Positions 427-58,870 are shown, numbered from the stretch's first letter. The stretch is DNA of 64,000 nt from Sphingobacteriales bacterium (GCA_016219985.1 JACRJO010000037.1:72251-136250), one strand, 5' to 3'. The notes: generated by a model from the letters alone, not told the origin. Program-made: numbers and translations.

Positions 427-501
427 TTAGATGTTTAAAGTTTGGAGTTCAGGGTTTAGAGTTCAGGGTTTAAAGTTTGGGGTTTAGAGTTTAGGGTTCA
501 G
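427..501. repeat. Degenerate heptamer tract (GGTTTAG/AGTTCAG/GGTTTAA)
   Basis: About 10 imperfect 7-nt units between rplU stop and rpmA start. Confidence 0.85.
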
Positions 502-537
502 GGGTTGGCACTGCAGGGCAGTCGCCAACACAAACCA

Positions 538-837
538 CTAAGCAATACTGGTTACTTTAATTTTTGTGTACGCTGTACGGTGACCTTTTTTCTTATGGAA
601 ACCTTTTCTCCTTTTTTGTTTGTAGGCGATCACGGTATCACCTTTTACCTGGTCAAGGATCTCTGCCTGTACTTTGGTACTCACGGTACCGCCCACAGAC
701 AGCTTACCATCTGCATCGGCCAGTAAAACTTCGAGGTCCAGTTTATCGCCGGCGTTACCTTCCACATGAGGTACGTACAAAGTCTGGTCTTTTTCCACTT
801 TGTATTGTTGTCCGGCTACTTTTACTACAGCTATCAT
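538..837 (-). CDS. rplU: 50S ribosomal protein L21
   Basis: GQQYKV N-terminus and KRRKGFHKKKGHR motif. Confidence 0.98.
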   Translation of the reverse strand: MIAVVKVAGQQYKVEKDQTLYVPHVEGNAGDKLDLEVLLADADGKLSVGGTVSTKVQAEILDQVKGDTVIAYKQKRRKGFHKKKGHRTAYTKIKVTSIA

Positions 838-856
838 ACGCTTAAAATTAGGACGG

Positions 857-950
857 CAAAGGTAAGGGGAAAAATTGAAGCGGCAAACGGGGAATCAAAG
901 ATTTATGAACATTTAGTACGCTCTTTTTGCCGGGGCATCTGCTATATTTG
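857..950. promoter_or_regulatory. Divergent Bacteroidota -7 promoter elements for rplU (TACCTTTG, minus, 857-864) and the GH3 operon (TATATTTG, plus, 943-950)
   Basis: Both match the TAnnTTTG consensus at suitable distances from the start codons. Confidence 0.6.
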
Positions 951-982
951 TAGCCCGCCCTTGGGGTTCTCATCGTGAAAGT

Positions 983-2485
983 ATGAAAATCAAGTCTTTT
1001 CTGGCAAAACCCTTTGCCTCCTATATATATAAAGGTATCCGGAAGGGGATGGGAACAGCCCTGGCTGACCAGGATGCCATCCTGAAGCATCTCCTCAAAA
1101 TTGGCCGGAATACGGAGTTCGGAAAGTCAGCCGGACTGGATAAAGTGGCTGACTATGAGGGATTTAAACAGGCTGTCCCAATCCGTGACTATGAGCAGTT
1201 AAAGCCCTGGATCGAAAAGATCAAGGAAGGAAAGCACAATGTTCTCTGGAAAGGCAAGCCGATCTATTTTGCCAAGACCTCCGGTACCACGAGCGGTACC
1301 AAGTATATTCCCATCACCCGGGATTCCATCCCCAACCATATCAACACGGCGCGGAATGCCCTGCTTTGTTATATGGCCGAGACGGGTAATACGGCATTTG
1401 CCGACGGGAAACTGATCTTTCTTTCCGGGTCACCTGAACTGGAAAGGGTGGGCGGGATTCCGACCGGCCGCCTGAGCGGGATCGTGAACCACCATGTGCC
1501 CCAGTACCTGCGATCCAACCAGATGCCCTCGTATGAAACGAATTGCATTGAAGACTGGGAAACCAAGCTGGGACGAATCGTGGACGAAACGATTAACCAG
1601 CGTATGACCCTGATCAGTGGGATTCCGCCCTGGATGCAGATGTATTTTGATGAACTGATCAAGCGAAGCGGAAAGAAAGTGGGCGAACTGTTCCCGGACT
1701 TCAGTGTCATGGTGCAGGGAGGCGTGAACTTCGAACCCTATAAGGCCAAGCTGATGGAAAGCATCGGCCGCAAGGTTGATACCATTGAATTGTTCCCCGC
1801 CAGTGAGGGATTCTTCGCCTTCCAGGATTCGCAGGAAGCAGAAGGATTATTGCTGAATACCAACAGCGGCATCTTTTTTGAGTTTGTACCGGCCGCGGAG
1901 ATCTTTTCAGAAAATCCCACCCGGCTTTCTTTAAAGGAGGTGAAGGTGGGAGAGAACTATGCCCTGATCATTAATAATAATGCGGGATTATGGGGTTATA
2001 ATATCGGCGATACGGTGAAATTCGTGTCGGTAGACCCATACCGGCTGATCGTATCCGGCCGGACCAAACATTTTATTTCGGCATTTGGGGAACATGTGAT
2101 CGGGGAGGAAGTGGAATACAGTATGCAGAAAGTGGCGGAGGAAATGAATGTACATATCACGGAGTTTACCGTGGCGCCCTTTGTCAGCAGCGACCAGGGC
2201 AAATCCTACCACGAGTGGTTTGTGGAATTTGAGCGGCAACCCGGTGACATGAAGGATTTTTCCGCCCGGCTGGACCTGGCCCTGCGCGGGAAAAATGTTT
2301 ATTATGATGACCTGATCAGCGGGTCAATCCTGCGGCCGTTGAAAATAACACAGGTCCGCAGGAACGGCTTTATTGATTACATGAAATCAATCGGTAAATT
2401 AGGCGGGCAGAATAAAGTGCCCCGGCTGAGCAATGACCGGAAGATTGCCGATGAATTAACTAAATGGACCGAAACCCCGGAATAA
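983..2485 (+). CDS. GH3 auxin-responsive family protein (acyl-adenylate/amido synthetase fold)
   Basis: TSGTTSGTKYIP P-loop-like motif, YxASEG-like FPASEGF, YNIGDTV, GGQNKVPRL C-terminus. Confidence 0.9.
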   Translation: MKIKSFLAKPFASYIYKGIRKGMGTALADQDAILKHLLKIGRNTEFGKSAGLDKVADYEGFKQAVPIRDYEQLKPWIEKIKEGKHNVLWKGKPIYFAKTSGTTSGTKYIPITRDSIPNHINTARNALLCYMAETGNTAFADGKLIFLSGSPELERVGGIPTGRLSGIVNHHVPQYLRSNQMPSYETNCIEDWETKLGRIVDETINQRMTLISGIPPWMQMYFDELIKRSGKKVGELFPDFSVMVQGGVNFEPYKAKLMESIGRKVDTIELFPASEGFFAFQDSQEAEGLLLNTNSGIFFEFVPAAEIFSENPTRLSLKEVKVGENYALIINNNAGLWGYNIGDTVKFVSVDPYRLIVSGRTKHFISAFGEHVIGEEVEYSMQKVAEEMNVHITEFTVAPFVSSDQGKSYHEWFVEFERQPGDMKDFSARLDLALRGKNVYYDDLISGSILRPLKITQVRRNGFIDYMKSIGKLGGQNKVPRLSNDRKIADELTKWTETPE

Positions 2486-2489
2486 ATTC

Positions 2490-57523: not shown

Positions 57524-57546
57524 TTGCGGGTTCGCCTGACTATAGT

Positions 57547-57576
57547 AAAAGCTATTCGTTCCTGCGAATGGCTTTT
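57547..57576 (+). terminator. Intrinsic terminator of the rpmB-rpmG-DUF4295 operon
   Basis: AAAAGCTATTCG-TTCCTG-CGAATGGCTTTT. Confidence 0.8.
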
Positions 57577-57690
57577 GTTGTTTATGCTTCGGCAGGTTCA
57601 GCAAGACAGGCTGAGGGATACTTTTAGGAAAGAGCGGTAGAAAAAGGATCGTTTAGAAGGATTGGTTTATCTTTCTTTAAAGGGGCTGTC

Positions 57691-57770
57691 TACTGACAAC
57701 TGACATCTGGCAACCTGCCTACTCGCCTCGCAGCGAAGCGGGCCGGACAGGCAGGCTGACAACTGACATC
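57691..57770. repeat. AACTGAC heptamer tract interrupted by a long REP-like palindrome (57714-57755)
   Basis: CCTGCCTA-[CTCGCCTCGCAGCGAAGCGGG]-CCGGACAGGCAGG flanked by CTGACAACTGACATC units. Confidence 0.85.
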
Positions 57771-57799
57771 ATGTAATACCAGGGTTAAATATAAAGCGC

Positions 57800-58762
57800 A
57801 TGGGATTTTTTAATAAACTATTTGGCAAGAAGGAAAAGGAAAGCCTCGACGAAGGGTTGAAAAAAACCAAGGAAGGTTTCCTGGCAAAGCTGACCAAGGC
57901 GATCGCCGGGAAAAGCACGGTGGATGAGGAAGTGCTGGATAACCTGGAAGAAGCCCTGGTGGGGGCGGATGTTGGGATTGACACCACGGTTAAAATAATT
58001 GAAAGGATTGAGAAAAGGGTCTCAAAGGACAAATACCTGAATTCAGCCGAGCTGAATAAAATGTTGCAGGAGGAAATTGAAGCATTGTTAATAGACGCCC
58101 CGGAAGCAAATAGTTATGCCTTTGATTCTGAGTTACCCTCAAGACCTTATATTATCCTGGTGGTTGGGGTAAACGGGGTGGGCAAGACCACCACCATTGG
58201 TAAACTGGCCTATAATTTCAGGAAAGCGGGTAAGGAAGTCCTGCTCGGTGCGGCCGATACCTTCCGGGCTGCCGCGGTGGATCAACTGACGATCTGGAGT
58301 GAACGGGTGGGTGTACCCATTGTAAAACAGGCCATGGGAAGTGACCCGGCCGCAGTGGCTTTTGATACGGTGCAAAGCGCGGTGGCTAAAAACAGTGATG
58401 TGGTGCTGATCGATACAGCAGGCCGTTTGCATAATAAGGCCCACCTGATGGATGAACTGGGCAAGATCAAGCGGGTGATTCAGAAGACCATTCCGGATGC
58501 CCCGCACGAAGTATTATTGGTGCTGGACGGCAGCACCGGGCAGAATGCGCTGGAACAGGCTAAACATTTTACGGCGGCAACCGATGTAACCGCCTTAGCC
58601 ATTACCAAACTCGATGGAACCGCCAAGGGGGGCGTGGTGCTGGCGATCGCCAACCAGTTTAAGATCCCGGTGAAATTCATCGGGGTGGGGGAGAAGATGG
58701 AAGACCTGCTGGTGTTTGACAAGCATGAATTCGTGGACAGTTTGTTCAGCCTGGAGAAGTGA
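57800..58762 (+). CDS. ftsY: Signal recognition particle receptor
   Basis: GVNGVGKTTT, DTFRAAA, DTAGR, TKLDGTAKGG. Confidence 0.98.
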   Translation: MGFFNKLFGKKEKESLDEGLKKTKEGFLAKLTKAIAGKSTVDEEVLDNLEEALVGADVGIDTTVKIIERIEKRVSKDKYLNSAELNKMLQEEIEALLIDAPEANSYAFDSELPSRPYIILVVGVNGVGKTTTIGKLAYNFRKAGKEVLLGAADTFRAAAVDQLTIWSERVGVPIVKQAMGSDPAAVAFDTVQSAVAKNSDVVLIDTAGRLHNKAHLMDELGKIKRVIQKTIPDAPHEVLLVLDGSTGQNALEQAKHFTAATDVTALAITKLDGTAKGGVVLAIANQFKIPVKFIGVGEKMEDLLVFDKHEFVDSLFSLEK

Positions 58763-58766
58763 AGGG

Positions 58767-58870
58767 AAGTTATAAGTTGTAAGTTATAAGTGAGAGCTAA
58801 CAACTAACAACTAACAACTAACAACTAACAACTGACAACTGTCAACTGTCAACTGTCATCTGACATCTGA
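58767..58870. repeat. Abutting complementary heptamer tracts (AAGTTRT, then CAACTAA/CAACTGW)
   Basis: Direct reading between the ftsY stop and rimO start. Confidence 0.9.

Follow-up and report, generated by a model that had tools for sequence, protein, structure and literature searches.

Intergenic arrays of short tandem repeats that keep a fixed orientation relative to gene ends have been described before. Rehm et al. (2015, PMC4692102) found GGGAATC arrays in Xanthomonas campestris and X. axonopodis and GGGGA(C/T)T arrays in Nostoc PCC 7120, in which the G-rich strand is the coding strand 0-50 bp past stop codons, overlaps with the stop included, and the non-coding strand 0-50 bp upstream of open reading frames (ORFs). 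The GGGAATC arrays formed 70-75 inverted pairs per genome, arrays in shared spacers differed in length and sequence between close relatives, the adjoining genes showed no functional enrichment, and no role was identified (PMC4692102). MacGregor (2015, PMC4679880) described direct repeats of TAACTGA in Beggiatoaceae, cyanobacteria and five Bacteroidetes. These repeats run "forward" toward start codons in Beggiatoaceae and Flexibacter litoralis, a reversed set lies directly past a stop in F. litoralis, and reversed copies are tolerated within ORFs; binders of the S1, cold-shock or CsrA type were proposed for them (PMC4679880). Here we describe heptamer and octamer tracts with a shared polarity at gene boundaries in the genome of a Sphingobacteriales bacterium (G000; 4.04 Mb, 39 contigs, 49% G+C) and in one window of it, a stretch of 64,000 nucleotides (nt) from contig C31:72251-136250, whose positions we count from its first letter.

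The polarity itself is already published and is not new, although the initial annotation of the window, which reported fourteen such tracts, knew of no description of it. What G000 adds is a rule carried by many unit families, units that are swapped while the polarity is kept, a skew at synonymous sites of the flanking genes, a dyad order of tracts within spacers, and a link to the gene family PF05635. Like the repeats of Rehm et al., the G000 heptamers are intergenic, spread over the chromosome, oriented in the same way at gene boundaries, often paired in inversion, and subject to turnover between relatives. Unlike those repeats, which comprise one family per genome and were picked for G-quadruplex potential, the G000 tracts belong to about 20 families, most of them without the G-runs of a quadruplex, and include one family, AAGAACC, that obeys the rule although its G/C skew is reversed. 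Rehm et al. reported neither a link to four-helix-bundle genes nor a skew at synonymous sites, both of which are seen in G000. As with TAACTGA, the ACT-core heptamers of G000 are oriented toward nearby starts, and the ACTGACA and CTGACAA units of the window are the nearest to TAACTGA, one position apart, while TAACTGA itself is not dominant in G000. The TAACTGA system differs in having one dominant unit, in 2-6 copies and mostly at starts, and the stop-side rule and dyads are undeveloped there.

We called repeats in the window and in the whole genome with Tandem Repeats Finder (TRF), and predicted genes by Markov ORF scoring trained on the genome itself, obtaining 2,877 genes that cover 81% of the sequence. 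These gene calls miss small genes and place starts approximately, so distances to starts are less exact than distances to stops. Polarity was described by counting G against C, and AGT against ACT, on the sense strand of the nearest gene. For comparison we used a congener (G011), a syntenic relative with approximately 85% nucleotide identity (G012), and further genomes, 61 relatives in the counts below. The nearest named relatives of the ftsY gene are from uncultured Chitinophagaceae.

Heptamer tracts are abundant throughout the genome. TRF returned 615 rows of period 7, against 123 of period 6 and 166 of period 10, and periods 14 and 21 were likewise frequent. Non-coding DNA makes up 19% of the genome, and 81% of the period-7 rows and 70% of the period-8 rows are intergenic. 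In total, 626 intergenic tracts of period 7 or 8 are spread over 384 spacers, or approximately 13% of the spacers between called genes. The congener G011 shows no period-7 excess in the 400 kb examined.

The orientation of these tracts relative to the nearest start or stop is strongly non-random, and close to gene ends the rule is almost absolute. The counts, by distance from the gene end, are as follows.

At most 5 nt from a stop: G>C to C>G, 105:15; AGT>ACT to ACT>AGT, 90:5.
6-60 nt from a stop: G>C to C>G, 79:39; AGT>ACT to ACT>AGT, 53:15.
More than 60 nt from a stop: G>C to C>G, 62:56; AGT>ACT to ACT>AGT, 47:32.
At most 20 nt from a start: G>C to C>G, 9:52; AGT>ACT to ACT>AGT, 3:43.
21-60 nt from a start: G>C to C>G, 12:39; AGT>ACT to ACT>AGT, 5:29.
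61-150 nt from a start: G>C to C>G, 27:36; AGT>ACT to ACT>AGT, 8:26.
More than 150 nt from a start: G>C to C>G, 13:35; AGT>ACT to ACT>AGT, 3:16.

The initial annotation had described the two strands as G/T-rich and C/A-rich. The contrast of G with C is borne out, while that of T with A carries no signal: the skew of G+T against A+C gave only 64% conformity overall and 83% at most 5 nt from stops, and we discarded it as a descriptor.

The rule is geometric: the G-rich strand runs 5' to 3' away from the nearest gene, whatever the direction of that gene. Because "G-rich after a stop, C-rich before a start" is mathematically the same as "G-rich strand pointing away from the nearest gene", the rule is not tied to the direction of transcription. 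It follows that any spacer, read on either strand, shows the G-type tract first and the C-type tract second. Among neighboring pairs of tracts within one spacer, read on the plus strand, 78 were G-then-C and 14 C-then-G, and the order held in every configuration of the flanking genes (20:5 for ++, 23:5 for --, 24:2 for +- and 11:2 for -+). Since single spacers contain both orientations, replication strand is excluded as the explanation.

Polarity is a fixed property of each unit family. About 20 families, with 224 distinct canonical units, carry the rule. In the 21 families with at least five tracts near gene ends, the pre-start orientation was opposite to the post-stop majority in 40 of 43 tracts (binomial p of approximately 3e-9). 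On the C-rich strand, about half of the heptamer tracts share the generic unit ACT-A-H-H-R; the shared "RGYY core" that had been proposed for the window fits about half of the heptamer tracts. A GGTTCTT tract beside the lpdA stop had been singled out as running the other way. In terms of G and C this exception is real, and it is a property of the family: on the sense strand after stops, AAGAACC is found 8:0 and AAGATGCC 6:0. The AAGAACC, AAGATGCC and GCCAATNN families have the opposite G/C skew and supply 19 of the 31 G/C "violations" beside stops. AAGAACC and AAGATGCC contain no stop codons on either strand, and their outward strand has more C than G. Because these two families are polar all the same, neither composition nor stop-codon content can be the only cause of the polarity, and stop-codon content as the sole cause at stops was ruled out. 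Reading the units by eye, we found that most of them (TAGTCGG, AGTTTGT, GAGCTGC and AAGAACC, for example) lack a run of three G; among the tracts read, such runs occur in few (424-508, 39160-39186 and 43570-43615). Since most units lack the G-runs required, polarity is independent of G-quadruplex potential.

The two tracts of a spacer are often related to each other. Of the 78 G-then-C pairs, 25 are same-family inverted repeats, compared with 4% for random G/C pairs, and significant inverted copies exist across the spacer for 20-22% of all tracts. Some inverted pairs enclose a gene. PF05635 is the family of 23S rRNA intervening-sequence proteins, four-helix bundles that resemble the Avd protein of diversity-generating retroelements (DGRs), and G000 has 14 such genes. 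Eleven of them lie between inverted tract arms, nine clearly of the same family, and the arms use unit families that are common to gene-less tracts. In these cassettes the G-type arm abuts the stop of the upstream host gene, and the C-type arm lies directly past the stop of the cassette gene itself. Because a C-type arm follows their own stop, the PF05635 genes break the gene-end rule while fitting the dyad rule.

Across the 61 relatives, the number of PF05635 genes was correlated with the number of heptamer-pattern matches (Spearman rho 0.78; 0.63 as a partial correlation on genome size; 0.68 among genomes of at least 2.9 Mb), and the 12 genomes without a PF05635 gene had 0-7 matches. G000 and the tract-poor G011 share one cassette at a common locus; its arms belong to one family in both genomes but differ in length, being short in G011. 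In Coxiella burnetii, an ORF-bearing intervening sequence (IVS) in the 23S rRNA, encoding S23p, is regarded as a selfish element, and its arm stem is cut by RNase III (PMC4990558). The G000 cassettes resemble it in carrying a PF05635-family ORF between complementary arms (11 of 14); they differ in lying between protein-coding genes and in having tandem heptamers as arms.

We tentatively favor the reading that the tracts belong, as arms and often as solo arms, to dyad spacer modules akin to the IVS-like four-helix-bundle cassettes, with polarity as a geometric consequence. Such a module would consist of a 5' arm, usually with more G than C and an AGT core, a loop, and a 3' arm of the complementary type, with more C than G and an ACT core. 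An inverted repeat reads alike on both strands, so the G-type arm adjoins the gene on the 5' side and the C-type arm the gene on the 3' side. This geometry would yield the pattern "G/T-rich after a stop, C/A-rich before a start" whichever way the genes run. A small PF05635 gene would sit in the loop of some modules, as in the ORF-bearing IVSs of 23S rRNA, while most modules would be gene-less, and many may have come down to one arm because slippage grows, shrinks and re-units the arms within the time that separates close relatives. With similarly guarded confidence, somewhat short of even, we take the tracts themselves to be slippage-prone heptamer and octamer microsatellites of the class already described in Xanthomonas, Nostoc and Beggiatoaceae. 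What the sequences show is the polarity and the G-then-C order, more inverted pairs of one family than expected by chance, PF05635 genes enclosed by arms, array numbers that vary together with PF05635 numbers, and arms gained or lost between close relatives. In read-through RNA, paired arms may fold into a long stem open to cleavage by RNase III, which would separate the neighboring transcripts, as the analogy with the 23S rRNA elements suggests.

Several observations weigh against this reading. Single-tract spacers make up 225 of the 384 and are just as polar (ACT:AGT 27:4 near starts, AGT:ACT 39:9 near stops). Their far boundary has no residual skew and no hidden partner arm, and for this reason we only infer that solo tracts are half-modules. 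In 53 of the 78 G-then-C pairs the two tracts belong to different families, as in the spacer between rseP and the MutS-like gene; neither this spacer nor that between ftsY and rimO folds into anything more stable than shuffled sequence. The ftsY-rimO tracts had been called mutually complementary, which is true only weakly (predicted stem z = -0.9 against shuffles). A PF05635 gene is absent from the window, whose tracts are all gene-less, and from the orthologous spacers at 30 rseP and 80 ftsY loci. Thus the proposal that the tracts are scars of a gene cassette gains from the 11 arm-bracketed genes elsewhere in G000 and finds no example in the window or at its orthologous spacers. The correlation with PF05635 may reflect a shared tolerance for accessory DNA, and two relatives, G001 and G042, are rich in PF05635 genes but poor in AGT-type arrays. 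The prevalence of the C-type among lone tracts that fill co-directional spacers also counts against the dyad reading. Finally, the concentration of tracts at stops and the frequency of TAG there, described below, point to a translation-linked filter as well.

The G-then-C order could also reflect how the repeats are synthesized. Repeats might be added, as at telomeres, to 3' ends that face a break or gap in the spacer, either by repair or by a reverse transcriptase with an Avd-like four-helix-bundle protein. If both 3' ends at a break were extended, outward G-rich strands and the 78:14 order would be expected, and the Avd protein that accompanies DGR reverse transcriptases is a relative of PF05635. 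However, the reverse transcriptase domain RVT_1 was undetectable in G000 and most tract-rich relatives (we did not find it in G000, G005, G008, G012, G032, G034, G036 or G037), and we rejected a reverse-transcriptase origin. A break would moreover leave the arrays together in mid-spacer with unique DNA beside the genes, whereas the observed arrays abut the genes with a loop of 20-100 nt between them, and the AAGAACC family does not fit. We consider this origin very improbable.

In the window, TRF recovered all fourteen tracts of the initial annotation, and direct reading confirmed them. On the sense strand, all seven post-stop tracts had more G than C and all seven pre-start tracts more C than G (14 of 14; two-sided binomial p of approximately 1e-4). 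Pfam and Rfam searches also agreed with the gene labels given earlier: ribosomal proteins L27 and L21, the M50 peptidase (rseP), the MutS-like protein, E2, lpdA and the transfer-messenger RNA (tmRNA). The tmRNA gene, ssrA, at 8141-8542, was the sole Rfam match in the window. The features are as follows, including the exceptional GGTTCTT tract and a composite repeat region.

424-508, plus strand: heptamer tract of GGGTTTA and GAGTTCA types before the start (415) of minus-strand rpmA; C:G 31:3 on the rpmA sense strand.
5086-5137, plus strand: TAGTCGG/TAGTTAG tract that begins at the rseP stop (TAG, 5083-5085); G:C 19:5.
5140-5170, minus strand: GAGCTGC tract (GCAGCTC on the plus strand), 8 nt past the stop of the minus-strand MutS-like gene; sense G:C 13:8.
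6997-7017, plus strand: TAGGTGT tract, 18 nt 5' of the start of the minus-strand MutS-like gene; sense C:G 10:0.
7963-8086, minus strand: 17.7 copies of CAGCTCR (as read on the plus strand), 54 nt 5' of ssrA; sense C:G 53:26.
33710-33758, minus strand: GCTCRCA tract, 34 nt 5' of an EamA-family gene; sense C:G 21:11.
37816-38507, no strand assigned: composite repeat region, with GCCAATNN octamers from the stop of ORF 34817-37816 onward.
39133-39159, plus strand: GTTAGTT/TAGTTAG tract immediately past the stop of a His_Phos gene; G:C 8:0.
39160-39186, minus strand: GGGGTTC/GAGGGTT tract, 1 nt past the stop of the minus-strand E2 gene; G:C 14:1 on the E2 sense strand.
43570-43615, plus strand: GGGTGTY tract immediately past the stop of ORF 42157-43569; G:C 25:4.
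43709-43744, minus strand: ACTAAAG/ACTAACG tract, 12 nt 5' of the start of a DUF6526 gene; C:G 9:4.
54982-55004, plus strand: GGTTCTT tract of the exception family, AAGAACC on the sense strand of minus-strand lpdA, 46 nt past the lpdA stop.
57276-57307, plus strand: AGTTGACA octamer tract, 1 nt past the stop of ORF 57092-57274; G:C 10:3.
57692-57772, minus strand: ACTGACA tract 5' of ftsY, with a 42-nt GC hairpin (57714-57755) inside; C:G 7:4.
58767-58791, plus strand: AAGTTAT tract, 4 nt past the ftsY stop, without a counterpart in G012; G:C 5:0.
58797-58870, minus strand: CTAACAA/CTGACAA/CTGTCAA tract ending 5 nt 5' of the rimO start; C:G 21:6.

The first tract illustrates the geometry: its G-rich plus strand points outward from the start of rpmA, which lies on the minus strand. 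The tract at 5086-5137 contains stop codons in all three frames, and the ACTGACA unit before ftsY continues beyond the hairpin. We take ORF 57092-57274 to be a probable rpmG (L33), from a reading of its sequence. The composite region (37816-38507) also holds 2.5 copies of a 203-nt module, GGTTCTT and TTCTTTGG tracts and one GC hairpin (38426-38446), and the GGTTCTT tract at 54982-55004 lies immediately 3' of two more such hairpins (54917-54936 and 54963-54982). Phase-variable simple sequence repeats, whose unit number switches expression from within an ORF or from between promoter elements of surface or restriction-modification genes, do not match this setting, as the tracts flank housekeeping genes (rpmA, rseP, ssrA, ftsY, rimO and E2) and most abut stops.

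Comparison with relatives showed that units turn over while polarity is kept. The syntenic region of G012 has tracts in most of the same spacers, usually with different units and the same polarity. For example, the 17 copies of CAGCTCR 5' of ssrA are replaced in G012 by CCGACTA-type units, and the single tract in the rpmA-rplU spacer corresponds to an inverted octamer pair. Both arm types are present between ftsY and rimO in G000, while G012 has the C-type arm alone; its tract before rimO is of the same family and shorter. At the site of region 37816-38507, G012 has unrelated sequence instead. The conserved rseP stop is followed in seven congeners by seven G-type arrays, no two alike; several congeners add a complementary array beside a convergent gene, and others have no array. 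Across the 61 relatives, AGT-periodic arrays ranged from 0 to 640 matches per genome.

The polarity extends into the coding sequence that flanks the tracts. In genes with a G-type tract 0-5 nt downstream, the last 30 nt had G at 0.59 and C at 0.07 of third codon positions, compared with 0.30 and 0.23 in the other confident genes (p = 1.6e-12). The shift begins approximately 60 nt before the stop, is present too when the tract is 6-60 nt away, and consists of synonymous third positions that move toward G and away from C and A. The G-rich coding tails are native sequence in G-ending codons. The possibility that tracts had overwritten the C-termini was ruled out: in the window, the C-terminal peptides of genes beside tracts are kept in G012, and the rseP C-terminus is kept across the genus. 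Starts show the mirror image, with C at 0.38 and G at 0.12 of third positions in the first ten codons, versus 0.28 and 0.21 (p = 1e-4), and a skew that reaches approximately 30 nt into the coding head. In other words, at both ends the flank adopts the composition of the adjoining arm and sheds the bases able to pair with it. Comparison of orthologues within genes gave the same direction, but weakly (rho 0.23, not significant, for rseP; rho 0.28, p = 0.013, for ftsY). If the tracts are arms, the skew may reflect selection against pairing of the flanking codons with the adjoining arm. As a separate observation, genes whose nearest downstream tract is C-type also had a milder skew in their tails (0.39 G, 0.15 C at third positions).

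Selection at the level of single tracts would offer another explanation, one that we regard as rather unlikely on its own. Slippage would make arrays in either orientation, and selection on the mRNA of the adjoining gene would keep one. Before starts, a C/A-rich, G-poor leader free of upstream ATG, GTG and TTG codons and of strong structure would suit the Shine-Dalgarno-independent initiation of Bacteroidota; past stops, the stops that a G/T-rich strand gives in three frames would make erosion of the native stop, or slippage, harmless. Much of the evidence near gene ends agrees with such a filter. Leaders without tracts are already depleted in G (15-17%, versus 22-23% C, at -30 to -1), and start-codon triplets are depleted on the sense strand 5' of starts (12:39). 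Tracts are concentrated at stops, with 124 of them at most 5 nt away; among 93 G/T-rich tracts that abut stops, 74 have stops in all three frames, and in 66 the gene ends in TAG, the stop of 14% of genes genome-wide, the stop often serving as the tract's first unit. Polarity is equally strong in solo and paired tracts, a tract that fills a co-directional spacer is C-type in 8 cases and of the other type in 2, and the flanking codons shift in the same direction at synonymous sites.

Despite this agreement, the filter leaves much unexplained. The AAGAACC and AAGATGCC families contain no stop codons yet keep strict polarity past stops. Polarity is kept more than 60 and more than 150 nt 5' of starts (ACT:AGT 26:8 and 16:3), mostly upstream of the promoter, and 3' flanks without tracts show no excess of G over C. 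C-type arms lie directly past the stops of the four-helix-bundle genes, and the GGGAATC unit of Xanthomonas has the same polarity without containing a stop triplet (PMC4692102). The -7 promoter motif TAnnTTTG peaks at -50 to 0 before starts. In the case of ssrA, a perfect -7-like motif, TAAATTTG, separates the tract from the gene, and therefore the tract lies upstream of the promoter. The unstructured leaders suggested by the initial annotation are plausible for tracts at most approximately 25 nt from a start, because leaders without tracts are also G-depleted. They are not a general explanation, because the more distant tracts mostly precede the promoter, as at ssrA, and keep their polarity. 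Even if the dyad model is right, a translation-linked filter probably contributes at stops.

A further possible role is that of transcription insulators. If tracts were polar insulators, RNA entering a gene from either side would meet a C-rich, G-poor zone of approximately 100 nt, formed by the tract and the flanking codons, which would load the termination factor Rho and halt read-in or antisense transcription, while outgoing G-rich RNA would be ignored. The strand that enters a gene does have more C than G at both gene ends, exactly as in the rule, and tracts upstream of promoters keep their polarity. A Rho loading site spans approximately 80 nt, and with the skew reaching approximately 60 nt into the coding tail and 30 nt into the head, a tract and its flank come close to that size. 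However, the same polarity is reported in Nostoc, and to our knowledge cyanobacteria lack Rho. A stem of complementary arms would hide the loading site, C-type tracts occur inside apparently co-transcribed pairs such as ftsY-rimO, and the AAGAACC family is skewed in the opposite way. We therefore judge insulation by Rho to be quite improbable.

Transposases of the Y1_Tnp family, associated with repetitive extragenic palindromic (REP) elements as REP-associated tyrosine transposases (RAYTs), were considered as a source of the tracts and rejected. The flanks of Y1_Tnp genes carry other hairpins (GTTCAACCCCGTTGGGGTTG) and not heptamer tracts, and the genes do not co-vary with tracts in the 61 genomes; G005 has 255 matches and no such gene, while G006 has no matches and four genes. 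There is a likeness to GTAG-tagged REP elements, in that many G000 units contain GTAG and GTAG precedes some of the GC hairpins. G000 has six Y1_Tnp (IS200/RAYT-like) genes, at C12:314719, C5:2247 and C24:9087 and in three weaker matches; REP-like GTTCAACCCCGTTGGGGTTG hairpins follow the best of them.

A bolder extension of the dyad reading, unlikely in our view, is that the intergenic heptamers of several phyla are largely the arms, intact or as remnants, of a single, widely distributed selfish hairpin cassette with an Avd-like PF05635 gene. Such a cassette would spread between genes without a recognizable transposase or reverse transcriptase, its protein would act on the arms, and the polarity and the codon skew would be its footprints.

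Other elements are found near the tracts. The GC-rich hairpin repeat CCTGCCTGCCGGCAGGCAGG, of the form CCTGCC(TGCC)...GGCAGG, occurs 134 times in the genome, and 5 of its copies are in the window (38426-38446, 42097-42137, 54917-54936, 54963-54982 and 57714-57755), where 0.2 would be expected by chance. It usually lies within a heptamer tract whose unit continues beyond it, and G012 has a hairpin at the same place before ftsY, inside a different unit family. The short tandemly repeated repetitive (STRR) heptamers of cyanobacteria, in accounts that go back to Mazel in 1990 and Elhai in 2008, are said to have small dispersed repeats nested inside them. The G000 tracts would be alike in being intergenic tandem heptamers with a small GC-rich hairpin repeat inserted inside the arrays, and unlike in phylum and in units.

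The 203-nt module of the composite region (37904-38425, 2.5 repeats) is built of GCCAATNN octamers, a GGTACGGGTAGCTGATTAACGGACGGGTC segment and GGTTCTT heptamers. The unrelated sequence at its site in G012 is apparently coding on the minus strand, and modules that resemble it also flank the PF05635 gene at C12:85523. A conserved element of approximately 55 nt, GGGGCCTTCTAAGAAGCATCTGGAAATCGAGGGGCATATCGTATTCTTCGGGG, has about 14 copies in the genome (for example C4:187176, C15:21701 and, outside the window, C31:189040). Every copy has a GGTGAAT-type tract on one side and an AGTAGGC- or TAGTCGA-type tract on the other, all in one shared orientation, and the element could be a small RNA or a further loop module.

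Gene content around ssrA also varies. In many congeners ssrA directly follows rseP, while in G000 and G012 the MutS-like gene (minus strand) and a PKD-domain ORF (7206-7844, plus strand) lie between them. In G000 the block of these two genes, within 5086-8140, is bounded by direct GCAGCTC tracts at 5140-5170 and 7963-8086. Two segments, 8541-10336 (ORF 9044-10156) and 12733-14412 (ORF 12917-14080), have no counterpart in G012 and no flanking heptamer tracts; the former starts where ssrA ends and has the appearance of a small island beside the tmRNA gene.

In practice, such arrays break short-read assemblies and may mislead gene callers at stop codons. For the biology of these genomes, the same boundary polarity recurs in Xanthomonas, cyanobacteria, Beggiatoaceae and Bacteroidota, and G000 shows that it needs neither G-quadruplex potential nor stop codons, that it is fixed for each unit family, and that it is accompanied by a synonymous shift in codons. 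The abundance of the arrays is tied to PF05635, the small gene family of Avd-like, 23S rRNA intervening-sequence proteins. What was a descriptive oddity thereby becomes testable, through the pairing and cutting of arms in RNA, the binding of arms by the four-helix-bundle protein, and the effect of inverting a tract on the neighboring gene.

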